DNA of 64,000 bases from a phage (GCA_011884725.1 GCA_011884725.1_3919.1); one strand, 5' to 3'; shown: positions 4,604-25,186, counted from the stretch's first letter. The notes: generated from the letters alone by a model not told the origin. Numbers and translations are program-made.

Positions 4604-4663
4604 ATCAACGGGGAGGGAATGACCTTCCCCACTAAATAAAGTCCTAAACTGGAGATTCTAAAA
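4604..4663 (+). repeat. leader module A copy 4
   Basis: Hairpin 4610-4630 plus RBS; preceded by TAAATT -10 element. Confidence 0.7.
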
Positions 4664-6381: not shown

Positions 6382-6391
6382 TCGACGCAGC

Positions 6392-6445
6392 GGGGCTAAA
6401 TAGCCCCAGATACCTGAAAAGCTCCTTCTCATAGGGGCTTTTTTA
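6392..6445 (+). terminator. terminator(s) closing the early plus-strand array
   Basis: Hairpin GGGGCTAAATAGCCCC (6392-6407) and GGGGC + TTTTTT (6434-6445). Confidence 0.55.
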
Positions 6446-6449
6446 CGTC

Positions 6450-8010
6450 TATAAAGAGACTCTATACAGTCCCTTTCCTTTCCTTCCTAGAATCTATCCC
6501 ACTAATTCGATAGAGACTATCTCATACCTTAAAAAGCAATAACTCTATAGTCTACTCTATAACCTCTTATCAAATCAACTTAAATATAAGCCCATAACCC
6601 GAAAGGGAAGGGCAACCACTAAAACGCTCTATAAAGCTCTATAACAGCCTTATCAATCTAACTTAAGCAATCATATTAACCTACTCTAAAAAGCCCTTTA
6701 TAGAGCTTCCCAGAGCCTTAAAAGAATCTTATAAGGGTGTAAGCTTTATTATCTCGTTAGCTATCTTGTGAACTACTAAAAAGGGCTTGTTAGTGTCTTA
6801 AAAGTATGTTATAGGGGCTATAAAGTTACTTCAAAGTTACGTAAAAGGGGCTATAAAGTTACGTAAATGCTAGCCCCCTTAACATTTTCTTAACAATTTC
6901 TTAACAATCCCTACATAGTTATGCTTTTAAGGCACTTGTTAGAGACTTGTTAGCCCCTTGTTAAATCTCTGTTAAGACCACGTAAAAGCCTTGTAAGAGT
7001 CTTTAGCATAGCCTTTAAAGCCTCTGTAAAGCCCTATAAAGAGGTGTCTGTATAGTTGGGGTGTAATTACTAGGAAGAGACTTAAAAGAGCTTACAAGGA
7101 GCTATAGAGAGCTTTTAAGAGGGCTATTTAGAGAATCACTAAGAGGGAAAGGGAACGATAAGAAAAGAGATAGTGACCATGTTAATAGCTTGTTAAAAAG
7201 ATTAAACACTTGTTAGGAACTTGTTAATTATCCCTACAAAATAACTCTTTAAAATTAACTTGTTAGCTCTTGTTAGTCATCTGTTAAGATTCTGTAAAGC
7301 CTATGTATCAACTGTTAAGAAACTGTTACACCCTTGTTAGTTCTGTTAAGAATCTGTTAAGACCTCTGAAGAGATGTTAAGAAGATGTGAGAACTGTTAA
7401 GGAATTGTTAATGATATTTTAAAATTTTGCAAAGTACTTGTAAGGGAGTTGTTAAGGGCTACCAAGCAGATATACATCTTCTACAGATATTTTTCAGTCC
7501 CTTCAAAGACCCTAAAAAATGACTTGATAGTCCTATTTTATAAAAATTTTAAAATTCTGAATAATTACCTATACAGTCTTTTAAAAATACAGGTAATAAC
7601 AGGCTTATAAGATACCTTGTTAGTACCGTGTTAGACCTTGTGAGATAAGGTCTGTAAAGATATTCCTGTTAAGTTTGTTAAAACAGTCTATATAGAGGCT
7701 TAGTATTTCCTAGTGAACACCTATAGAGGGTAACATAGCTAACCTAGAGATTAAGAGGTGTATAGGAGCTTCTAAGAGGGTGTAGAGAGATGGTTAAGGT
7801 GATTGTATAGGTTGTTAAGAAGGCTTGTTAGAAGAGTGTTTAGAAGGGCTATACAGAGGGGCTATTAAGACCACTAGATAGATACTAAGATACTATATAG
7901 TACTATATAACTATATAGAGAGTAAGATTAAGAAGGTTGTTAAGAAGGGTAGATATTTTATTCACATATGATGGTGACCCAGCGGTTGGGACAACCGATA
8001 AATTTTATAA
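6450..8010. repeat. ORF-free region with dense phased short repeats (iteron-like)
   Basis: No ORF of 60 aa or more in any frame; more than 30 copies of (C)TTGTTA(A/G) and CTGTTAAG, several CTATAAAG, tandem GGGGCTATAAAGTTAC x2 (6817, 6846); spacing in 7261-7410 is multiples of about 10-11 bp. Confidence 0.75.
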
Positions 8011-8042
8011 AAATTAAAAAGCCCCCGATTAAGGAGGCTCTT
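7975..8042 (-). terminator. possible terminator region after minus-strand operon
   Basis: Hairpin CGGTTG-GGA-CAACCG (7983-7997) and GC-rich GCCCCCGATTAAGGAGGCTC next to A/T runs, just downstream of the stop at 8051. Confidence 0.3.
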
Positions 8043-8050
8043 AAGATATT

Positions 8051-8599
8051 TTAAATCAGTGTTTCCAGAACTGTTTTCAATGATGACTTGGTTGTCTGAT
8101 AAAAATGAGTAAATCCATTGTTATTATCGAATACCTGCATCATGATATCATCTCCCTTGATTGGGTACACTCGGATATCATAGTGAAAACCATTAAAGAC
8201 ACAAGAACCACTACAGAATGCTCTAAAGTCATCTACTGAGATATACTCTTCATGACCTGTGATTTTTATACAAACGCCTTTACTCGGTCTCTTAGGGTTG
8301 ATATCTTCCATCACAGACATACTCTGTCCACCAAGAGATACCATAGTGACCACTTTACGGTTCTTCTGTTTAAAGTACATCTTAACTTTCTGCAAAGTGT
8401 CTTCATAGAATGGATAAGACCTTTCTACAAAGATTCCTTCAAGTGGCTCTTTACCATTTTCAACTTCTCGGTTATGCCGTACTGCAAAGATAATTTGTTC
8501 GAACCAGTCAAGATTTTCTTCGGAGAGTGCTTCCCGAACATCCTTCCAGTCAAGTACTAAGTAGTTACCTTCAACTTCTTTTAAGTTATCTTTTTCCAT
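8051..8599 (-). CDS. hypothetical protein
   Basis: ORF 8051-8674; internal ATG at 8599 chosen because it avoids a 62-nt overlap with the upstream gene. Start is uncertain. Confidence 0.55.
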   Translation of the reverse strand: MEKDNLKEVEGNYLVLDWKDVREALSEENLDWFEQIIFAVRHNREVENGKEPLEGIFVERSYPFYEDTLQKVKMYFKQKNRKVVTMVSLGGQSMSVMEDINPKRPSKGVCIKITGHEEYISVDDFRAFCSGSCVFNGFHYDIRVYPIKGDDIMMQVFDNNNGFTHFYQTTKSSLKTVLETLI

Positions 8600-8612
8600 A
8601 TCTATCACACCA

Positions 8613-9077
8613 TTATCGTAAAACTTGATATTCTGGTACTGCGAATTTATTACTATTGTTCTTGATGAGGTCATCCTCTGAAACTAAAAATGTAATCCCA
8701 CATAAGTGTCTGTAACGACTATCATACTCGAATATCTTAAACAGATATTTACCATCATGATAAACCTGTTGCACTTCACCTTCTGCAACAGTCTCGCCTG
8801 TAATAAAATTTTTTAGTTTATACACATTACCAACTTTAGGTACTGTTTTCATCTCAGGCTCTTTTAGTGCTACACCTATTTTTGCATCACCGAGTAAATG
8901 AGAACTCTCAAAAGCTACGTGTTTCATATAAGCTTCTGAGCATTCCCAAATAAAACAATGTACAAGAACCTTAGCAGCATGTCTTGAGCAGTTCAACTTA
9001 TCACAAATTTCTGTGTACATCTCATCTTTAGTAGAATTGTCAAGCATTGCTCTTTGCACTACTTCTTTAATTTTCAT
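8613..9077 (-). CDS. hypothetical protein
   Basis: 154-aa ORF in a tight minus-strand operon. Confidence 0.65.
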   Translation of the reverse strand: MKIKEVVQRAMLDNSTKDEMYTEICDKLNCSRHAAKVLVHCFIWECSEAYMKHVAFESSHLLGDAKIGVALKEPEMKTVPKVGNVYKLKNFITGETVAEGEVQQVYHDGKYLFKIFEYDSRYRHLCGITFLVSEDDLIKNNSNKFAVPEYQVLR

Positions 9078-17961: not shown

Positions 17962-18038
17962 CTCTGTTTAGCTCAGCTTGGTAGAGCGTTCCGTTTGGGG
18001 CGGTAAGGCCGGAGGTTCAAGTCCTCCAACAGAGACCA
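17962..18038 (+). tRNA. tRNA-Pro (anticodon TGG)
   Basis: 7-bp acceptor CTCTGTT/AACAGAG, T-arm GGAGGTTCAAGTCCTCC, anticodon loop TTTGGGG, encoded CCA. Confidence 0.75.
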
Positions 18039-18045
18039 AATTAAT

Positions 18046-18123
18046 GTTCCAGTAGACAAAATGGTAAAGTCACCACTCTTTCAAAGTGGATATCTGAGGG
18101 TTCAAATCCCTTCTGGAACGCCA
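18046..18123 (+). tRNA. tRNA-Glu (anticodon TTC)
   Basis: Acceptor GTTCCAG/CTGGAAC, anticodon stem CCACT/AGTGG, loop CTTTCAA, T-loop TTCAAAT, CCA. Confidence 0.75.
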
Positions 18124-18126
18124 GTT

Positions 18127-18205
18127 TTGACAGAAGACCAATTACAGCAAACTTAATCTTATTCATCTGAAGGTAAATCGGACAAAGAAGAGATTTGGTC
18201 TGGTC
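18127..18205 (+). ncRNA. inter-tRNA structured element E1
   Basis: CAGAAGACC-box, helix AGACCAA (18135-18141) / TTGGTCT (18195-18201), TTACAGCAAA box inside. Confidence 0.5.
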
Positions 18206-18214
18206 ATTAAGAAT

Positions 18215-18291
18215 TGCGGGTATAGAGAAAGGGCGTCTCACATGTCTCATTAGCATGGTATCGGCAGGTTCGACTCCTGCACCCGCCTCCA
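18215..18291 (+). tRNA. tRNA-Met-like (anticodon CAT) with 1:72 mismatch
   Basis: Anticodon stem CATGT/GCATG, loop CTCATTA, T-arm GCAGGTTCGACTCCTGC, 3' ACCCGCC-T-CCA; 5' end TGCGGGT leaves position 1 unpaired. Confidence 0.6.
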
Positions 18292-18294
18292 AAT

Positions 18295-18365
18295 TTACAG
18301 AAGACCGTTTACAGCAAAATTGAATGAAATTTTTAGCGGAAAAATTGAAAGATACGGTCTGGTAA
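18295..18365 (+). ncRNA. inter-tRNA structured element E2
   Basis: Helix AGACCGT (18302-18308) / ACGGTCT (18354-18360); compensatory to E1; TTACAGCAAAA box. Confidence 0.5.
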
Positions 18366-18375
18366 TACTAAACAT

Positions 18376-18449
18376 GGTTAGGAAGCACATAAGGTATGTG
18401 CGGTCGCCTGTTAAGCGAATGGCACAGGGTTCGAATCCCTGACTAACCG
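18376..18449 (+). tRNA. tRNA-Asn (anticodon GTT)
   Basis: Acceptor GGTTAGG, D-stem GCAC/GTGC, anticodon loop CTGTTAA, T-arm CAGGGTTCGAATCCCTG; no encoded CCA. Confidence 0.65.
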
Positions 18450-18461
18450 CAAAATTGAAAT

Positions 18462-18549
18462 GTGTCGTTATCCCGTAGATGGTAGCGGTGGGGACTGTAA
18501 ATCCCTTGTCATTGAGACTCGGTAGGTTCGACTCCTACACGGCACACCA
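18462..18549 (+). tRNA. tRNA-Tyr (anticodon GTA), long variable arm
   Basis: Acceptor GTGTCGT/ACGGCAC, anticodon loop CTGTAAA, long variable arm, T-arm GTAGGTTCGACTCCTAC, CCA. Confidence 0.7.
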
Positions 18550-18554
18550 ATAAA

Positions 18555-18631
18555 GGCTATGTAGTTTAACTGGAGAAAATACTCCCCTGTCACGGGAGAT
18601 GATGTGAGTTCAAGTCTCATCGTAGCCGCCA
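18555..18631 (+). tRNA. tRNA-Asp (anticodon GTC)
   Basis: Acceptor GGCTATG/CGTAGCC, anticodon stem CTCCC/GGGAG, loop CTGTCAC, T-loop TTCAAGT, CCA. Confidence 0.75.
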
Positions 18632-18685
18632 AATTATAATAAGTATTTCAAAATGATGTTTTGAGAGGGCTATTTAGCCCCTCCC

Positions 18686-18716
18686 TTAAAGAGTTCTTAC
18701 GAGTATTCTTTAAAGG
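18686..18716 (+). ncRNA. hairpin with conserved TTCTTACGAG loop, copy 1
   Basis: TTAAAGAGTTCTTACGAGTATTCTTTAAAGG; second copy at 22027-22056 has a different but still complementary stem. Confidence 0.45.
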
Positions 18717-18795
18717 AGCAGAAGACCAAATACAGCAAGAATGTATGATATTTTCAAGCCAATCCAATTTTGAAAAAATTTAAAACTTGGTCTGG
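18717..18795 (+). ncRNA. inter-tRNA structured element E3
   Basis: CAGAAGACC box, helix AGACCAA (18723-18729) / TTGGTCT (18787-18793), ATACAGCAAG box. Confidence 0.5.
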
Positions 18796-18804
18796 CTCAA
18801 CAAA

Positions 18805-18939
18805 TTTACAGAAGACCGTTTACAGCAAAACTTAAACAATCTATTTCTCGGTAAAGAAAAGGCGAAGGTTCGATTCCTTCACTCGGCAGATGTCGAGTTG
18901 GTGTAATGGTAGCACTTAAGATGATAAACAACGGTCTGG
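18805..18939 (+). ncRNA. element E4 enclosing a tRNA-like module
   Basis: Helix AGACCGTT (18813-18820) / AACGGTCT (18930-18937); inside: T-arm GAAGGTTCGATTCCTTC, hairpin ACTCGGC-AGAT-GTCGAGT, D-arm-like GTGTAATGGTAGCAC. The order is 3'-half before 5'-half. Confidence 0.45.
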
Positions 18940-18940
18940 T

Positions 18941-19084
18941 AATTATCTTTGTAGATAAGTTATTAAGCTTACCTGTGAGTATGCGACCACAAAGGGTGAA
19001 AGGGTAAATTCTAGATTTAAACCCAAAAAGGCACATCGCTACAGACCTTAAGCAAGTCTGGGTAGCTTATCTACAAAGATAATT
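18941..19084 (+). ncRNA. structured RNA closed by a 19-bp perfect helix
   Basis: AATTATCTTTGTAGATAAG (18941-18959) is the exact reverse complement of CTTATCTACAAAGATAATT (19066-19084); inner hairpins include CAGAC/GTCTG. Confidence 0.5.
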
Positions 19085-19088
19085 TAAT

Positions 19089-19164
19089 GGAAGTGTAGCA
19101 GAATGGTGATGCGGCAGACTTTTAATCTGACAGGCGATGGGTTCGAATCCCTCCACTTCTACCA
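19089..19164 (+). tRNA. tRNA-Lys (anticodon TTT)
   Basis: Acceptor GGAAGTG/CACTTCT (G1.U72), anticodon loop CTTTTAA, T-loop TTCGAAT (weak T-stem), CCA. Confidence 0.65.
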
Positions 19165-19168
19165 ATAT

Positions 19169-19245
19169 GGTTCAGTCGCAGATAAGGTAATGCAAGGGTC
19201 TCATAAGCCCTATGAATGTGGGTTCGATTCCCATCTGAACCTCCA
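19169..19245 (+). tRNA. tRNA with CAT anticodon (elongator Met or Ile2-type)
   Basis: Acceptor GGTTCAG/CTGAACC fully paired, anticodon stem AGGGT/GCCCT, loop CTCATAA, T-loop TTCGATT, CCA. Confidence 0.65.
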
Positions 19246-19246
19246 A

Positions 19247-19322
19247 GCTGGTATAGTTAAGAAGGTTATAACACTCCCCTGATAAGGGAACATCGGTGGT
19301 TCGATTCCACCTACCAGTACCA
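19247..19322 (+). tRNA. tRNA-Ile (anticodon GAT)
   Basis: Acceptor GCTGGTA/TACCAGT, anticodon loop CTGATAA, T-arm GGTGGTTCGATTCCACC, CCA. Confidence 0.7.
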
Positions 19323-19337
19323 ATTTCAATAAAGTTG

Positions 19338-19366
19338 TTGACATTGAGATGTGACTACTTTATAGT
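19338..19366 (+). promoter_or_regulatory. internal promoter within tRNA array
   Basis: TTGACA (19338-19343), 17-nt spacer, TATAGT (19361-19366). Confidence 0.6.
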
Positions 19367-19568
19367 AACCTTAGTTTTCGTTGCGTAGCGTCTATTTTGC
19401 AAATTTAAAATAAATGCAAACGACAATGTTTTTCTGGCAGTAGCTTGATAGGCTAAACACCAGTGAGGTCTTCCAATCCCTCATCAAAGAATTTGGCGTA
19501 CTCGCCCACGGTATGATTAATAAGGTGGGCATCTTTAAGGGCTTTCTAAGAGAGTCTTTAAAGATAAT

Positions 19569-19645
19569 GCACCCTTAGTTCAATTGGATAGAGCAACGGT
19601 CTTCTAAATCGTTAGTTACAGGTTCGAATCCTGTAGGGTGTACCA
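19569..19645 (+). tRNA. tRNA-Arg (anticodon TCT)
   Basis: Acceptor GCACCCT/AGGGTGT, D-arm TAGTTCAATTGGATAGAGC, anticodon loop CTTCTAA, T-loop TTCGAAT, CCA. Confidence 0.75.
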
Positions 19646-19787
19646 AATAGTTAGCAGATTACTTAGACGGCCTTAGCGGGTCTTCCTGTAGGGAGGTGGT
19701 CTGTATCTCATGTTTTCCAGAACATGTAAATAATCTGAGAAGAAGCTTGACAGTGTTGAGATAACAGGGTAAGCTTCGAATTATAAT

Positions 19788-19870
19788 ATGGGACGATGTT
19801 AAGACTCTAAGGCATGAGCAACGGCCTCCAAAACCGTTTCAAAGGGGTTCAACTCCTCCGTCCCATGCCA
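19788..19870 (+). tRNA. atypical tRNA (anticodon probably CCA, Trp?)
   Basis: Acceptor ATGGGAC/GTCCCAT, T-loop TTCAACT, CCA; anticodon stem AACGG/CCGTT encloses 9 nt (CCTCCAAAA); D region is 4-8 nt longer than usual. Confidence 0.45.
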
Positions 19871-19883
19871 AAGTCTTATTAGG

Positions 19884-19971
19884 GGTAGGTAGCGGCTAAT
19901 GGTAGCCAAACTGTCTTGAAAACAGTTGCCACTGTAGAGATACGGTGAGGGTTCGACTCCTTTACTTACCG
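19884..19971 (+). tRNA. tRNA-Ser (anticodon TGA), long variable arm
   Basis: Acceptor GGTAGGT/ACTTACC, anticodon stem ACTGT/ACAGT, loop CTTGAAA, long variable arm, T-loop TTCGACT. Confidence 0.65.
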
Positions 19972-20126
19972 CCTAATAAGATTTACTCCGTCCATGCTTG
20001 TTCGCATTGTCGGTTTATCCCTCGTGTATTGTCGTACACTGTCAAAGCACCTAGTAGGTGTCACGGAGAAGAGATAATATCAAGCTCTCCAAAGGTTCTA
20101 GTCACCGGATTAAACAAGACTATGCA

Positions 20127-20151
20127 AAGACCTATTTAGGTCTTTTTAGAG
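20127..20151 (+). terminator. intrinsic terminator inside tRNA array
   Basis: AAAGACC-TATTTA-GGTCTTT followed by TTTAG. Confidence 0.5.
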
Positions 20152-20227
20152 GGCTTCTAAGGTTATTAGTCGCTTGTTGTGGAACCTTGTTGCTTAGGTT
20201 CTTAGAAGTTCTCTAAAAAGATTTAAT

Positions 20228-20305
20228 GGGAGATTGACGGTAATTGGTAAACCTACCATCCTTAGAAGTTGGTGTTTGAGGGTTCGAATCCCTTGTCTCC
20301 TACCA
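20228..20305 (+). tRNA. tRNA, class I shape, anticodon TAG (Leu?)
   Basis: Acceptor GGGAGAT/GTCTCCT, anticodon loop CTTAGAA, 5-nt variable loop, T-loop TTCGAAT, A73, CCA. Confidence 0.5.
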
Positions 20306-20312
20306 AATTAAT

Positions 20313-20388
20313 GCAGGTGTAGCAAAATGGTTATGCGGCTGACTCTTAATCAGTAAGACGATGGGTTCAATTCCCTCCACCTGTACCA
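20313..20388 (+). tRNA. tRNA-Lys (anticodon CTT)
   Basis: Acceptor GCAGGTG/CACCTGT, anticodon stem GCTGA/TCAGT, loop CTCTTAA, T-loop TTCAATT, CCA. Confidence 0.6.
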
Positions 20389-20394
20389 AACATT

Positions 20395-20470
20395 GGGGAT
20401 GTAGTTTACATGGTTAAAACATAAGTTTTGCAAACTTAAGTACAGGGTTCAATTCCCTGCTTCTCCACCA
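20395..20470 (+). tRNA. tRNA-Cys (anticodon GCA)
   Basis: Anticodon stem AAGTT/AACTT, loop TTGCAAA, T-arm CAGGGTTCAATTCCCTG, CCA. Confidence 0.65.
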
Positions 20471-20476
20471 ATTAGT

Positions 20477-20551
20477 GCATCCATAGTTTAAACGGGAAAA
20501 TTACAGTCTTCCAAACTGAGGTTGAGGGTTCGATTCCCTCTGGATGCTCCA
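20477..20551 (+). tRNA. tRNA-Gly (anticodon TCC)
   Basis: Acceptor GCATCCA/TGGATGC, anticodon loop CTTCCAA, T-loop TTCGATT, CCA. Confidence 0.65.
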
Positions 20552-20557
20552 AACAAT

Positions 20558-20634
20558 GCTGCTTTCGTATAATTGGCTATTACACATCCCTTGTAAGGAT
20601 GGAAATGCAGGTTCGAGTCCTGTGAGCAGCACCA
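20558..20634 (+). tRNA. tRNA-Thr (anticodon TGT)
   Basis: Acceptor GCTGCTT/GAGCAGC, anticodon stem CATCC/GGATG, loop CTTGTAA, T-loop TTCGAGT, CCA. Confidence 0.7.
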
Positions 20635-20635
20635 A

Positions 20636-20730
20636 TTCAGAGGTCAAGTGAAAGACCGCTTTGAGTCAACTGAAGACCGTAACAAATACCACGGAGTTGA
20701 GTTAGCGGCACAACTTCAGACCTCTTTCAT
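20636..20730 (+). ncRNA. structured spacer element between tRNA-Thr and tRNA-Val
   Basis: Closing helix CAGAGGTC (20638-20645) / GACCTCTT (20722-20729); contains a GAAGACCGT box as in E2/E4; no T-loop. Confidence 0.4.
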
Positions 20731-20805
20731 ACTCGCTTAGTTTATATGGTAAAACATCACCCTTACAAGATGAAGAAAAAGGTTCAAGTCCTTTAGTGAG
20801 TACCA
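20731..20805 (+). tRNA. tRNA-Val (anticodon TAC)
   Basis: Acceptor ACTCGCT/AGTGAGT, anticodon loop CTTACAA, T-arm AAAGGTTCAAGTCCTTT, CCA. Confidence 0.6.
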
Positions 20806-20806
20806 T

Positions 20807-20884
20807 GTTCCAGTATCCCAATTGGCAGAGGATGCAAGCTCAAACCTTGTATTAGTGACGGTTCGAATCCGTCTTGGAACACCA
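20807..20884 (+). tRNA. tRNA, class I shape, anticodon CAA (Leu?)
   Basis: Acceptor GTTCCAG/TTGGAAC, anticodon stem GCAAG/CTTGT, loop CTCAAAC, T-arm GACGGTTCGAATCCGTC, A73, CCA. Confidence 0.5.
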
Positions 20885-20889
20885 ATTTT

Positions 20890-20965
20890 GCAGGATTAGT
20901 TCAAATGGAAAGAGCAACAGTCTACGAAGCTGTTAATAGGGGTTCGAATCCCTTATCCTGCGCCA
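20890..20965 (+). tRNA. tRNA-Arg (anticodon ACG)
   Basis: Acceptor GCAGGAT/ATCCTGC, D-stem GTTC/GAGC, anticodon stem ACAGT/GCTGT, loop CTACGAA, T-loop TTCGAAT, CCA. Confidence 0.75.
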
Positions 20966-20982
20966 GATAAAAAGGTGATACT

Positions 20983-21225
20983 ATGCAAACATTAACAGTA
21001 GTTGAACATGAAAACTGTGAGAGTATTGAGTTTGTCAGGGTCATTGGTGTTGAACACCACATTTTCTTAAAAGTGGGATACTTATGTGACCCCGCTAGAG
21101 TAGAAAGATTTATACGTGATTGTTTTGGTGGTAGACATCTGAAGAGTGTTATTTTTGAGACAGTTTTACCAGAAGGTTTAGAAACGAATAATAACATTTA
21201 CCTCCTTACGAGGATTAGACAATGA
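20983..21225 (+). CDS. hypothetical protein embedded in tRNA array
   Basis: 80-aa ORF; RBS AAAGGTGA 7 nt upstream of ATG. Confidence 0.5.
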   Translation: MQTLTVVEHENCESIEFVRVIGVEHHIFLKVGYLCDPARVERFIRDCFGGRHLKSVIFETVLPEGLETNNNIYLLTRIRQ

Positions 21226-21779
21226 GATACTTAAAGTATGCTTCATGGATTTTCTTAGCTTTGTTAGAGCCATTTGCAGCAATCTTAGCAGTTATCTTAG
21301 CACCTTTTGTAGTTCCATTCTACAGTGAGAAGAAAGGACACTTACCTTTCGGGTTCAGATGGATGGAGACATATGACAACCCAATTGATGGTGATGAAGG
21401 TCACGTTAAAAGATGGGCTAATATTAGATGGATTGGTAAACTAGGTGTCTACATGCAAAGAGTCGGATGGCTCTGGAGAAACAAAGCTTATAACTTCTCT
21501 TACCATGTATTAGGAAGAGATGTAAGAGATGTTACTAAGTGGAAAGGTAATATCAACGTAAGTTCTAACCCTGAAGATAATCAGACTGGTTATCTCCTAA
21601 TGTGGAACAGTAATGCTTGGGGATTATTCGCTTTTATCCCATCAATTAAAGTCTTCGGTAAACAGTTTTACTGGAGAATTTATGTTGGATGGAAACTTAA
21701 AAGTGTTGTCCCAGAAGAAAGAGCATTCTCAAGGGAAAGAGTTATGTTGGCATTCTTTATTCATCCACTGAGAAAGTAA
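21222..21779 (+). CDS. hypothetical membrane protein embedded in tRNA array
   Basis: 185 aa; N-terminal TM segment (WIFLALLEPFAAILAVILAPFVVPF); start overlaps previous stop; RBS GAGGA. Confidence 0.6.
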   Translation: MRYLKYASWIFLALLEPFAAILAVILAPFVVPFYSEKKGHLPFGFRWMETYDNPIDGDEGHVKRWANIRWIGKLGVYMQRVGWLWRNKAYNFSYHVLGRDVRDVTKWKGNINVSSNPEDNQTGYLLMWNSNAWGLFAFIPSIKVFGKQFYWRIYVGWKLKSVVPEERAFSRERVMLAFFIHPLRK

Positions 21780-21787
21780 AGATTTAA

Positions 21788-21863
21788 AGGGGATTAGTTT
21801 ACAAGGTTAAAACCTCGGTCTTTGAAATCGAAGAAGTTGGTTCAATTCCAACATCCCCCGCCA
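21788..21863 (+). tRNA. tRNA-Gln (anticodon TTG)
   Basis: Anticodon stem TCGGT/ATCGA, loop CTTTGAA, T-arm GTTGGTTCAATTCCAAC, 3' ATCCCCC-G-CCA; position 1 (A) unpaired with C72. Confidence 0.6.
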
Positions 21864-21865
21864 AT

Positions 21866-21944
21866 GCTCCATTACTCCAATTGGCAGAGAGGCCAGACTT
21901 AAAATCTGTGTTATGTATCGGTTCGAATCCGATATGGAGTACCA
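21866..21944 (+). tRNA. tRNA, class I shape, anticodon TAA (Leu?)
   Basis: Acceptor GCTCCAT/ATGGAGT, anticodon loop CTTAAAA, T-arm ATCGGTTCGAATCCGAT, A73, CCA. Confidence 0.5.
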
Positions 21945-21949
21945 AATTT

Positions 21950-22025
21950 AGCGGTATAGCATAACTGGCAATGCAGCAGTCTCTGAAGCTGTCCTATTAA
22001 GGTTCAAATCCTTATGCCGCTGCCA
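21950..22025 (+). tRNA. tRNA-Gln (anticodon CTG)
   Basis: Acceptor AGCGGTA/TGCCGCT, D-stem GCAT/ATGC, anticodon stem GCAGT/GCTGT, loop CTCTGAA, T-loop TTCAAAT, CCA. Confidence 0.6.
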
Positions 22026-22026
22026 C

Positions 22027-22056
22027 TTCTAAGGATTCTTACGAGAGTCCTTAAAT
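22027..22056 (+). ncRNA. hairpin with conserved TTCTTACGAG loop, copy 2
   Basis: TTCTAAGGATTCTTACGAGAGTCCTTAAATG; stem TAAGGATTC/GAGTCCTTA. Confidence 0.45.
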
Positions 22057-22132
22057 GTGGCCTTATCATAAATGGTAATGACCCATGCTGTGAACATGGT
22101 CTATACGGGTTCAAATCCCGTAGGTCACCCCA
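22057..22132 (+). tRNA. tRNA-His (anticodon GTG)
   Basis: Acceptor GTGGCCT/AGGTCAC, anticodon stem CCATG/CATGG, loop CTGTGAA, T-arm ACGGGTTCAAATCCCGT, CCA. Confidence 0.7.
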
Positions 22133-22138
22133 ATTTAT

Positions 22139-22214
22139 AGTCCAAGTAGCTTATATGGTTAAAGCGCGTGTCTGAAAAACATGAGAAGAGGGTTCAAATC
22201 CCACTGGACTACCA
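22139..22214 (+). tRNA. tRNA-Phe (anticodon GAA)
   Basis: Acceptor AGTCCAA/CTGGACT, anticodon stem CGTGT/ACATG, loop CTGAAAA, T-loop TTCAAAT (short T-stem), CCA. Confidence 0.6.
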
Positions 22215-22230
22215 ATTTCAAAGGTGCTTA

Positions 22231-22965
22231 ATGAAAGAGATGACAGAACAAGGTAAGGAGATTTTCAATCTCTTAAAAACCGGTAAAGGGTTTTCTAACC
22301 CCCTTATTACTGGTGCAGCAGTTCTCGGTGGAACCGTAGCTGCCTCTACATCACTTGTAAGCTCTATTAGCTCTGTATCAGACCCTACAGTAAAGGATAA
22401 GCTTGTTGCTGCTGGACTTACAACAGTTCTGCTTAACAGCTTTACCACGAGTCTGACAAGCACTACATCAACTACCAAAACACTAACAGATTACGGTCAA
22501 AAGTCCATTGATGAGTTTTCATCACGTATGCAGGTAGCAAAAGGTTACTCTAATGTTATGGGTGCAGCAGGTGAACAAGTTGGCTGTACACCATTTAGTG
22601 GTATTATGGGTGTTGCTACAGAGTATGGTCAAAAAACTATTGATACGATTAACAGTGTACTAGATAGTGTTAATGGTGTGTTAAGTGACTTACAAGATGC
22701 TATTGACAAAGGTCTTGATACTATTTCTGATTTAGCTGAGCAAGCTGTTAGTAAGATTAATGAAGGTATTTCAAAAATTACAGCTTATGCAGATGAAGTT
22801 GTGCAGATGATTGAAGAAGAAGCTGCTCTTATTGCAGAGTACCTTAAAACGAATATCAATGGGTTCTTAGCAGGTATCTTACCAGACTGGTTTGATGATG
22901 CTTGTAAAACTGGTGTAATTGACACTATTGCAACACCAGAAATGAAGAACGCATTACAGAAATAA
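22231..22965 (+). CDS. hypothetical protein (Ser/Thr-rich N-half, helical C-half)
   Basis: Listed ORF starts at 22168 inside tRNA-Phe; in-frame ATG at 22231 with RBS AAAGG chosen. Confidence 0.55.
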   Translation: MKEMTEQGKEIFNLLKTGKGFSNPLITGAAVLGGTVAASTSLVSSISSVSDPTVKDKLVAAGLTTVLLNSFTTSLTSTTSTTKTLTDYGQKSIDEFSSRMQVAKGYSNVMGAAGEQVGCTPFSGIMGVATEYGQKTIDTINSVLDSVNGVLSDLQDAIDKGLDTISDLAEQAVSKINEGISKITAYADEVVQMIEEEAALIAEYLKTNINGFLAGILPDWFDDACKTGVIDTIATPEMKNALQK

Positions 22966-22967
22966 AT

Positions 22968-23060
22968 GGAAGATTAACCCTAAAAGGTAAGGGAGCAGTT
23001 TGCTAAACTGCCAGTAGCTGAGAAATCGGTGTACCAGTTCAAGTCTGGTATCTTCCTCCA
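22968..23060 (+). tRNA. tRNA-Ser (anticodon GCT), long variable arm
   Basis: Acceptor GGAAGAT/ATCTTCC, D-stem CCC/GGG, anticodon stem GCAGT/ACTGC, loop TTGCTAA, long variable arm, T-arm ACCAGTTCAAGTCTGGT, CCA. Confidence 0.7.
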
Positions 23061-23064
23061 ATTT

Positions 23065-23140
23065 GAATCCGTGACAGAAACGGCTATGTGCCTGTCTGCA
23101 AAACAGGTTTATAAGGGTTCGAGTCCCTTCGGATTCTCCA
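23065..23140 (+). tRNA. tRNA with GCA anticodon (second Cys-like)
   Basis: Acceptor GAATCCG/CGGATTC, anticodon stem CCTGT/ACAGG, loop CTGCAAA, T-arm AAGGGTTCGAGTCCCTT, CCA; atypical D-arm. Confidence 0.5.
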
Positions 23141-23563: not shown

Positions 23564-23584
23564 TTCTATTTGCGGAGGTGCTTA

Positions 23585-25186
23585 ATGGACTTAAATGCTG
23601 TTAAGCAGAAGCGAGTGGAAGATGTTAGGAAAGTCCTAGCTGGAGAGTTGGGGCTTTCTGATGAAGTAAAAGAAATTATTAAATCATTCGGTAAAGACCC
23701 CTCTAAATTCCTTCCAACTCAAATTCTGACTTTATTAAGATACACACCAGACCAAGTTCGCCTTATCTTTAAATTGATGACTGATAAGAATTATGTAGCC
23801 CCTCAGCCGGGTTCTCAAGAGGTCTTTTTAAATACTAATGCTGACTTGGTTCTCTATGGTGGTGCTGCGGGTGCTGGTAAGACTGCTGCATTGTTAATGG
23901 ACTCTTTAAGGTTTATTGATGACCCTAATTATAATGCTGTATATTTCCGTCGAAATACAACACAGCTACAAGGTGGTTTGTGGCCTGCTGCAAAGAAACT
24001 ATTTGGTAAGTTTGGTGGGGTTCCTCACGAGCAGAAGATGACTATCACATTCCCTTCTGGGGCAACTATCAAGTTTACCTATCTAGAGCTTGAAAAGCAC
24101 GCTGAAGGTCATCAGGGTATTGAGTATTCAGCTATTTACTTTGACGAAGGTACTCACTTCTCTGCTTCACAGATTTCATACCTACAGACTCGTCTACGTT
24201 CTGGGGCTGAAGGTGATTCATACATGAAGATTTCTATGAACCCAGACAGAGACCACTTTATTTACGATTGGGTAGAACCATTCTTAGATGAAGAAGGTTA
24301 CCCAGACCCTGAAAAGTGTGGTCGTATTCGTTGGTATGTAATGAATGATGGTGTTATGGTTTCTGATTGGGAGAGAGACAAGATTCTTGAAATGTTTCCT
24401 CTTGAGATTCCTCAAACATATACATTCATCTCTGGTACGATTGATGATAACCCAATTCTTGACTTCTTAGAACCTAAATATCGTGGTAAGTTGGAAAACA
24501 ACACCCCTGTAAACGTTGCAAGACTTCGTTTCGGTAACTGGAAGGCTCGTGCAGAAGGTTCAAACTATTGGCAAAGACAATGGTGTGAAATTGTTGATTC
24601 ACTCCCAGAAGATGTATTCGATGTCAGAGCATGGGACTTAGCAGCAACTTTACCATCTGAGATTAACCCTAACCCAGACTGGACAGCAGGTGTTAAGATG
24701 GGTAAATCTAAAAAAGACGGTTGCTATTATATCATTGATGTAGTAAGATTTAGAGATAGACCCTCTGGAGTCGAAACACAAATTAATTTGACTGCTGAAA
24801 GTGACGGTAAGCGAACTGGTATTTTTATCCCTCAAGACCCAGGCGCTGCTGGTAAATCCTACGCAACATCCCTCATCAGGAAACTTGCCGAGAAAGGTTA
24901 TCGAGCAAGAGCTAAACCAACAAATAAAGACAAAGTTACCCGATTTGCGGGGTTTTCTGCTGCTTCTGAAGCTGGACTTGTAAAAGTCTTGAGAGGTAGT
25001 TGGAACGAAGCTTACTTTCAAGAACTTGAAGGTTTTTGTGGTGATGGTAAAACTAAAGATGACCAAGTGGATGCTACCAGTGATGCTTTCAACAGTCTTA
25101 ACGAAGTTAAATTATTCAAGCCACCATCAATGGGTGCTCACACAGACTTAGTGAGAGGAAACCCATATGAGGGGCTTAGACGTTGA
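23585..25186 (+). CDS. terminase large subunit
   Basis: Walker A LVLYGGAAGAGKT, ATPase and nuclease-domain acidic residues; ATG at 23585 follows RBS GGAGG. Confidence 0.9.
   Translation: MDLNAVKQKRVEDVRKVLAGELGLSDEVKEIIKSFGKDPSKFLPTQILTLLRYTPDQVRLIFKLMTDKNYVAPQPGSQEVFLNTNADLVLYGGAAGAGKTAALLMDSLRFIDDPNYNAVYFRRNTTQLQGGLWPAAKKLFGKFGGVPHEQKMTITFPSGATIKFTYLELEKHAEGHQGIEYSAIYFDEGTHFSASQISYLQTRLRSGAEGDSYMKISMNPDRDHFIYDWVEPFLDEEGYPDPEKCGRIRWYVMNDGVMVSDWERDKILEMFPLEIPQTYTFISGTIDDNPILDFLEPKYRGKLENNTPVNVARLRFGNWKARAEGSNYWQRQWCEIVDSLPEDVFDVRAWDLAATLPSEINPNPDWTAGVKMGKSKKDGCYYIIDVVRFRDRPSGVETQINLTAESDGKRTGIFIPQDPGAAGKSYATSLIRKLAEKGYRARAKPTNKDKVTRFAGFSAASEAGLVKVLRGSWNEAYFQELEGFCGDGKTKDDQVDATSDAFNSLNEVKLFKPPSMGAHTDLVRGNPYEGLRR

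Follow-up and report, generated by a model that had tools for sequence, protein, structure and literature searches.

Background

The closest described counterparts of the locus considered here are the direct terminal repeats (DTRs) of Felixounavirus phages, and the locus itself is a gene-free region at positions 6433-8050 of a 64,000-nucleotide stretch of phage DNA (GCA_011884725.1, sequence GCA_011884725.1_3919.1; the whole stretch is referred to below as the window). Phages of the Felix O1 type are classics of Salmonella typing and of biocontrol. Judged by its database matches, the window holds the genome of a Felixounavirus, a Felix O1-like myophage, as assembled into a circle and then opened. 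The region is very probably the concatemer junction around a DTR, which can be read as the packaging signal of a Felix O1-type chromosome.

Felixounavirus repeats have been reported for three phages in the literature. The DTR sequence of UAB_69 is printed in Fig. S1 of PMC11350853, and that of Pr103Blw was sized at 581 bp by PhageTerm (PMC8303462). For UAB_Phi87, virion DNA was digested with Bal31 for limited times and also run-off sequenced, which gave a DTR of 608 bp and two discrete SpeI fragments, of 4322 and 2819 bp, that were sensitive to Bal31 (PMC4837284). The same paper quotes the classification of Casjens & Gilcrease, wherein a short exact DTR defines class iii, and in the passages covered it states that the terminase tree agrees with packaging type. 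The repeats of these three phages are orthologous to the one in the window, being 91-96% identical to it, with the same boundaries and the same converging gene blocks, and nothing essential differs between them and the present repeat. On this comparison the kind and location of the feature are already known, as they are on record for relatives at that level of identity.

A search with the region gave 257 matching phage records (80-93% identity), belonging to phages of Escherichia, Salmonella, Shigella and Citrobacter. All matching records that were fetched and checked belong to the Ounavirinae, mostly to Felixounavirus, and a search in distant mode also recovers the region from the sister genera Mooglevirus and Suspvirus at 76-79%. 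The setting of the region is constant in all matching relatives: two blocks of small hypothetical genes, the same ones throughout, converge on it. A T5-type injection-stop region, the first guess from the look of the sequence, was dropped once the search gave Felixounavirus.

Extent of the direct terminal repeat

The printed DTR of UAB_69 aligns end to end with window positions 6871-7465, and 538 of 592 positions (91%) are identical. From the relatives, the left physical end would lie at 6871-6873 and the right end at 7463-7465, or at 7461-7465 over all records compared. The complete deposited records of ZX4221, E9, D4, I14.1, ECP2307 and GE_vB_7A, which stem from several laboratories, start or end no more than about 4 nt from these boundaries and contain the DTR at two places each, and the records of H12 and ECOH1 likewise start at a DTR boundary. 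In the two records that were checked for exact copies, these are found at both ends, 591 bp long in ZX4221 and 580 bp long in E9; they span GCCCCCTTAACA... to ...TGTTAAGGGCTACC, which corresponds to window positions 6873-7463. Relatives thus carry the same sequence at both ends, as is characteristic of an exact DTR, with a single copy held in the present assembly. The ends are also fixed and non-permuted, with independent records agreeing within 2-4 nt. The record of phiWec172 was considered as a further carrier of a second copy and was dropped after both of its ends had been fetched; its match is probably a split alignment.

The preliminary description of this DNA had listed a packaging or terminal-repeat region among several options for the gene-free stretch, and it is this option that the comparison bears out, positions 6871-7465 being orthologous to the published and deposited DTRs of Felixounavirus. 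With the repeat restored to both ends, the left virion end would carry about 1.1 kb of non-coding DNA (6871-8010, the repeat and the right flank) and the right virion end about 1.0 kb (6446-7465, the left flank and the repeat). With true genome ends at about 6871 and 7465, the record should open there and the repeat should be counted twice. More generally, conserved gene-free stretches of "iteron-like" appearance in circular phage assemblies should first be tested as collapsed terminal repeats.

Boundary elements

Both boundaries of the DTR bear the same element of 12-14 bp, TAGCCC(CC)TTAACA, in inverted orientation relative to each other (Table 1). Read inward, the two physical ends thus look the same, the element being followed in each by TTAACA units spaced 11 bp apart. 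On the left, the inverted units set in 8 nt from the end, and on the right the final unit merges with the boundary element. The pattern TGTTAAGG followed by CTA has three occurrences in 64 kb, at 6871-6884 (minus strand), at 7450-7461 (plus strand) and, as a shorter variant, at 1717-1727. This shorter variant, TGTTAAGGCTA, is on the minus strand within a block of small plus-strand open reading frames (ORFs), and it may be a coincidence.

The boundary elements are nearly invariant in 15 relatives belonging to Felixounavirus, Mooglevirus and Suspvirus. The left element reads TTTACA for TTAACA in the three most distant of them, and the right element reads TGTTTAG for TGTTAAG in one. The 10-15 bases outside the boundary elements are nearly unchanged too, the next 13 on the right side beginning GCAGATATACA.

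Phased TGTTA(A/G) units

Within 6433-8050 there are 30 TGTTA(A/G) units, 27 on the plus strand and 3 inverted (6879, 6890 and 6901), in comparison with 1.8 +/- 1.3 and a maximum of 7 in 1000 dinucleotide-preserving shuffles. Their density is 16.7 per kb in the region versus 1.07 per kb elsewhere in the window, a 15-fold enrichment with strong strand bias: the inverted units are the three closest to the left end, and all others point rightward. Bare TGTTA cores on both strands number 35, versus 4.8 +/- 2.1 in shuffles. The preliminary description had spoken of more than 30 units, a figure reached only by including bare TGTTA cores or TGTAA variants, the strict number being 30 for TGTTA(A/G); its list of starts for 7261-7410 is accurate at every position except 7283, the correct value being 7282. 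The most over-represented 6-mers among those seen at least 6 times are TTGTTA, TGTTAA, TGTTAG, GTTAAG and GGGCTA, at 16-26 times background, and the extended consensus of the unit is (C)(T/C)TGTTA(A/G)(G/a). The motif CTATAAAG is likewise concentrated here, with 5 copies in 6433-8050 versus 4 in the remaining 62 kb.

The units are arranged in arrays (Table 1), the densest of which, forward array 3, is detected as a tandem repeat with a period of 11 and 9.8 copies. Neighboring units are exactly 11 bp apart in 11 of 28 cases, and pairwise distances are concentrated at 11, 20, 31, 42 and 62. Phasing is strongest for a period of 10.25 bp (mean cosine 0.67), a value equaled by none of 5000 sets in which positions were jittered by +/-5 bp. 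Because distances of 20, 31 and 42 outnumber those of 22, 33 and 44, the phase tracks the helix and not a strict 11-mer, and two earlier statements, that spacings fall near multiples of 10-11 bp and that the sites lie on one face of the helix, are upheld by the same figures. Short helix-phased repeats clustered at cleavage sites, a property of pac- or cos-type sites, are accordingly present at this locus (30 units, 10.25 bp). A periodicity of AA dinucleotides at 10-11 bp, used here as a stand-in for a curvature model, is 3-6 times the window median over about 6450-7450 and is not raised in the right flank. From their phasing and from the selective conservation of the motif described below, the TGTTA(A/G) units are plausible protein-binding sites.

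Conservation and indels among relatives

Motif bases are 96% conserved versus 86% for other non-coding bases (p = 2e-11), and the phase of 10.25-10.5 bp is present in all 15 relatives from the three genera. Insertions and deletions between relatives cluster at 10-11 and 20-24 bp. The inverted CTTAACAxTTT units, for example, vary from 3 to 5 copies in 11-bp steps, with insertions of 11 and 22 bp in loci L001 and L010 of the comparison set. The repeat and right flank are always present (95-100% coverage), in contrast with neighboring genes, which are mosaic (11-100% coverage), and the identity of the repeat and right flank equals or exceeds that of the neighboring genes. Within the genus, as seen in 11 Felixounavirus loci, no other part of the region is as well conserved as the right flank, which has 87-97% identity and 97-100% coverage; the left flank (6446-6870) shows 82-94% identity to relatives.

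Several insertions were observed in the same alignments. A mini-palindrome of about 22-23 bp, (T)AATTGGTATTGTTACCAATCC, is inserted at differing non-coding sites in relatives, once in inverted orientation (L001:3908, L006:2146, L009:4073, L011:2056, L016:686, L017:8599, L026:9281, and L027:854 and 958); the equivalent window sites are 6578, 6612, 7143, 7235, 7260 and 7315. It also occurs within the UAB_69 repeat and is absent from the present window. The mini-palindrome resembles a very small insertion, either mobile or generated from a hairpin, by which the two-turn phase is preserved. Further insertions of 21-32 bp, several of them apparently palindromic, are found at other sites in relatives, and window positions 6489-6510 (AGAATCTATCCCACTAATTCGA) are missing in 11 of the 15.

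More distant phages retain the setting of the region in part. In Erwinia phage FIfi106 (Kolesnikvirus), four tandem repeats of about 38 bp (TATGCACAAATTGAAAATGAAAAAC..CCAGACCC, L031:5860-6010) adjoin the same terminator and gene as window positions 8017-8674, and the gap is shorter, at 460 bp. The TGTTA array was not found in the gap of the Erwinia Kolesnikvirus phages. The record of BoyaciRG1 (L035/L036) has an exact duplication of 1232 bp at both ends that covers the gap and parts of genes; it may represent a genuine terminal repeat or result from overlap in the assembly.

Gene-free stretch and flanking terminators

At 1618 nt, window 6433-8050 is the longest stretch within the 64 kb that has no ORF of at least 60 amino acids (aa) on either strand, and the next-longest such gaps (908, 782 and 513 nt) are all inside the transfer RNA (tRNA) cluster. 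The stretch had initially been called the only long one of its kind, which agrees with this ranking. Convergent terminators had also been proposed on its two sides, and they are indeed found at 6416-6445 on the plus strand and at 8042-8017 on the minus strand; the fold of 6382-6450 has -28.5 kcal/mol (z -3.97). Terminators are annotated beside the region in the records of relatives as well, on both sides in Maleficent and on the right side in KhF2. The skew of guanine and cytosine (GC) switches from C-rich to G-rich within the central spacer of the repeat. The right flank contains a stretch of 23% GC at 7500-7600, pairs of TGTTA at 7618/7629, 7667/7676 and 7813/7826, a lone unit at 7938, and TATAG repeats at 7880-7920.

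Table 1. Coordinates of features at and around the terminal repeat, in window positions
Feature	Position	Strand	Remarks
Second hairpin, GGGGCTAAATAGCCCC	6392-6407		near plus-strand terminator
Rho-independent terminator	6416..6445	+	hairpin plus U-run; ends rightward block of small early-type genes
Left non-coding flank	6446..6870	.	C-rich on plus strand; (G)CTCTATAAAG-type units
GGGGCTATAAAGTTAC pair	6814-6829 and 6847-6862		abuts left repeat boundary
11-bp array, AAAGTTACGTA	6822-6867		abuts left repeat boundary
Putative DTR, about 591-595 bp	6871..7465	.	one collapsed copy in assembly
Left boundary element, TAGCCCCCTTAACA	6871..6884	+	inverted partner of right boundary element
Three inverted units, CTTAACA(T/A)TTT	6878..6910	-	11-bp spacing, directly inside left end
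Forward array 1, four (C)TTGTTA(G/A) units	6935..6976	+	starts 6937, 6948, 6959, 6970; exactly 11 bp apart
Central spacer without TGTTA units	6977..7177	.	purine-rich; carries TAAAAG, TAGAG and GGGCTA units
Forward array 2, TGTTA(A/G) units	7178..7228	+	starts 7180, 7191, 7211, 7222
Forward array 3, densest, 11 units	7259..7412	+	starts 7261, 7271, 7282, 7313, 7324, 7335, 7344, 7355, 7375, 7395, 7406
Right boundary element, TGTTAAGGGCTACCAA, i.e. TGTTAAGGGCTA(CCAA)	7450..7465	+	last motif unit fused to GGGCTA
Right non-coding flank	7466..8010	.	G-rich on plus strand; no helical phasing
Rho-independent terminator	8017..8042	-	z -3.44; ends leftward gene block, last gene 8674..8051

The last gene before the left end (8051-8674, minus strand) encodes a protein of 207 aa that belongs to phrog_4330, a family of unknown function, and has no Pfam match. 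In records of Erwinia phages, the gene at the position equated with it by the shared terminator alone is annotated as "Macro domain (Poa1p-like)" or "phosphatase".

Other observations concern the genome at large. The tRNA cluster comprises 26 genes (17962-23140, plus strand) and lies directly upstream of the late operon, which contains an ORF of 66 aa, the large terminase gene (23570-25186) and an ORF of 491 aa at the position that the portal gene has in Bas63. The tetranucleotide GATC is absent from the 64 kb, where dinucleotide-preserving shuffles give 187 +/- 13, which amounts to complete avoidance of Dam/MboI-type sites; the Felix O1 paper reports resistance in relation to GC-rich restriction sites, and GATC is not mentioned in the passages of it that were covered. 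Finally, CCTAAACTGGAGA(A/T)TC(T/A)A has eight plus-strand copies (996, 1465, 1844, 2914, 4643, 5186, 5784 and 6111) where about 0.1 would be expected. The copies stand just upstream of small-gene starts, as checked against ORF starts for those at 4643, 5186 and 6111, and they correspond to the 26-bp repeat, similar to a "start-associated sequence", that is reported for Citrobacter phage Mordin.

Alternative explanations

Phased repeats in a gene-free stretch could also be the iterons of a phage initiator, with the 23% GC stretch at 7500-7600 as an unwinding element. Such a replication origin, which could coexist with a DTR, is unlikely. Dense direct repeats do adjoin an AT-rich stretch, the GC skew changes sign inside the region, and the right flank is highly conserved within the genus yet has no obvious packaging feature. 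The iterons of plasmid and phage origins are typically 17-22 bp, however, whereas the repeat core here is 6-8 bp at 11-bp spacing. The region has a single relaxed match to the DnaA box (7958), at window-wide density, and no IHF consensus; all PHROG families matched by the six flanking proteins are of unknown function, and none of the six has a Pfam match, so that no initiator gene is visible among them. The skew pattern across the window follows the direction of transcription, and the conservation is already explained by the physical ends, which map to precisely this place. The origin that had been suggested as one option is therefore left with generic features, namely repeats and low GC. It is very unlikely that the arrays serve instead for end protection, end synapsis or as a host-protein sink, where arrays at both ends would load a virion or early protein, or titrate a host protein, and thereby shield the ends from RecBCD or join them. 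This would fit with the beginning of both ends, read inward, as TAGCCC..TTAACA followed by phased units, with the lack of Chi sites in the region, and with the suggestion of the PhageMaP authors, in the passages covered, that Bas63 is without a RecBCD inhibitor. There is no candidate protein, the idea is purely speculative, and scans of the region for IHF, Fis, DnaA and Tus consensus sites found none enriched. The sink for a host protein, another of the earlier options, finds no support in these scans, in which Chi sites were not enriched either.

Copy number differs among relatives in 11-bp steps and the arrays resemble degenerate tandem 11-mers, as would be seen if functionless, slippage-prone 11-bp repeats had accumulated in a gene-free end region. 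This account is highly improbable, as motif bases are more conserved than spacers, the cumulative phase is 10.25-10.5 bp and not 11n, the boundary elements hardly vary among the three genera, and the region is kept in full where adjacent genes are lost. It is extremely improbable that the region is a non-coding RNA or a cluster of promoters or other regulatory sites. A long, conserved and ORF-free region with a weak plus-strand hairpin and T-run at 7983-7997 might invite that reading, but the best Rfam E-values are 0.18-0.24, far below gathering scores, the predicted folds of the flanks are not better than those of shuffled sequence (z -1.36 and -1.38), and conservation tracks the DNA motif and not a base-pairing pattern. 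Promoter-like sites number 10 versus a shuffle expectation of 9.2, and transcription of the gene blocks on either side runs towards the region and stops at its borders.

Proposed recognition of the ends and packaging

In the packaging reading of the region, the terminase complex would recognize the junction in replicated concatemers during packaging. Because the same element is inverted at the two boundaries, the complex might be guided by the boundary elements to cut or nick one strand at one edge of the repeat and the opposite strand at the other, and the repeat would then be duplicated by strand-displacement synthesis, after the classical T7-type scheme. In T7-type phages, nicking at the boundaries and copying of the repeat by strand displacement have been proposed. 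The approximately 30 units, recurring every 10.3-10.5 bp or so on one face of the helix, would probably be sites at which the packaging machinery's recognition component binds cooperatively and bends the DNA. In other systems DNA recognition is the role of the small terminase.

The large terminase gene at 23570-25186 encodes a protein with the Pfam domains Terminase_6N/6C that belongs to phrog_979. No small terminase was recognized by PHROGs or Pfam among the product of the 66-aa ORF upstream of it and the six flanking proteins, so that a cognate recognition protein, as expected for a pac- or cos-type site, was not found among the proteins tested. A homologue search with the 66-aa ORF gave only near-identical proteins, and it is predicted to form a two-helix hairpin, a shape so plain that fold-search hits would be meaningless. 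Literature on Felix O1 and UAB_Phi87 likewise reports the large terminase subunit only, in the passages covered (PMC4837284). The IHF consensus WATCAANNNNTTR has no match in 6433-8050, and the region in this respect lacks the site for a host bending factor that is seen in lambda cos and P1 pac.

As there is no recognizable small terminase, a different mode of recognition was considered. The phased units and inverted boundary elements may define an undescribed way of recognizing and processing ends, in which a phage or host protein would coat one face of the last 0.9 kb or so, direct symmetric nicking and maybe provide a platform for an origin or for end protection after injection; this is a tentative idea with a small chance of being right. 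The searched passages of the Felixounavirus DTR papers hold no mention of phased TGTTA arrays, inverted boundary elements or conserved flanks, a full-text literature search with part of the array sequence found no paper, and the passages found of the paper on the Bas63 knockout library give no measurement for this intergenic region. The phased arrays and boundary elements (7259-7412 and 6871-6910) are concrete targets in the search for the recognition factor.

Several points weigh against the reading of the region as a packaging junction around a DTR, or limit its precision. When the boundary elements are placed in the UAB_Phi87 record, they predict a repeat of 618 bp, with SpeI fragments of 4437 and 2749 bp at the termini; the published values are near these and so speak for the boundaries, yet they differ by 10 bp for the DTR and by 70-115 bp for the fragments. 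Deposited ends vary by 2-4 nt among records, which limits the precision of the cut positions, and the ends of the present phage are placed by homology with the DNA of relatives. The scheme of nicking at the boundaries is borrowed from T7-type phages. Protein binding by the units and a role in packaging are suggested by sequence features, and the units may act instead in replication, end protection or ejection. Lastly, frequent recombination at the repeat, rather than purifying selection, could partly explain the high conservation.

Comparison with known packaging systems

Beyond Felixounavirus, three groups of phage systems resemble the present locus in part. The junction of T7 and T3 reportedly consists of a 160-bp terminal repeat with flanking arrays of short repeats and nearby pac signals, in work attributed to Dunn and Studier in 1983 and to Chung and Hinkle in 1990. 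The likeness lies in a short exact terminal repeat with defined ends, in short repeats within or beside it, and in its presumed duplication from a single junction copy. The present phage, however, is a myovirus with a large terminase of T4-type fold (Terminase_6N/6C) and no recognizable small terminase of the gp18 kind; its repeat is four times longer and its motifs are unrelated. The genes at its ends point outward to the ends, whereas the left end of T7 bears inward early promoters.

Recognition sites composed of phased short repeats include the pac hexamers of P1, the R sites of lambda cosB, and pacL/pacR of SPP1. These share with the present locus multiple helically phased units of 6-8 bp near the cleavage point, an arrangement that by analogy suggests cooperative binding and bending by a recognition subunit. 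In those systems a small terminase has been identified, together with an IHF site in P1 and lambda, and neither is found here by the searches described above. They also have headful or cohesive ends, in contrast to the exact terminal repeat of the present phage, whose array is far larger, with about 30 units over 1.2 kb. The locus is not classed with the pac/cos families because of the missing IHF site and the lack of a recognizable small terminase.

The long terminal repeats of staphylococcal Twort-like myophages are said, after Lobocka et al. in 2012, to be bracketed by short inverted repeats. In this they agree with the present locus, where one short element recurs, inverted, at the two boundaries of the repeat; by analogy an inverted element at both edges suggests one enzyme acting symmetrically. 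The Twort-like repeats differ in being several kb long and in carrying genes, and neither the phages nor the boundary sequences are related to the present ones. Among these systems, the present repeat would, by analogy, work like the short exact terminal repeats of the T7/SP6 type.

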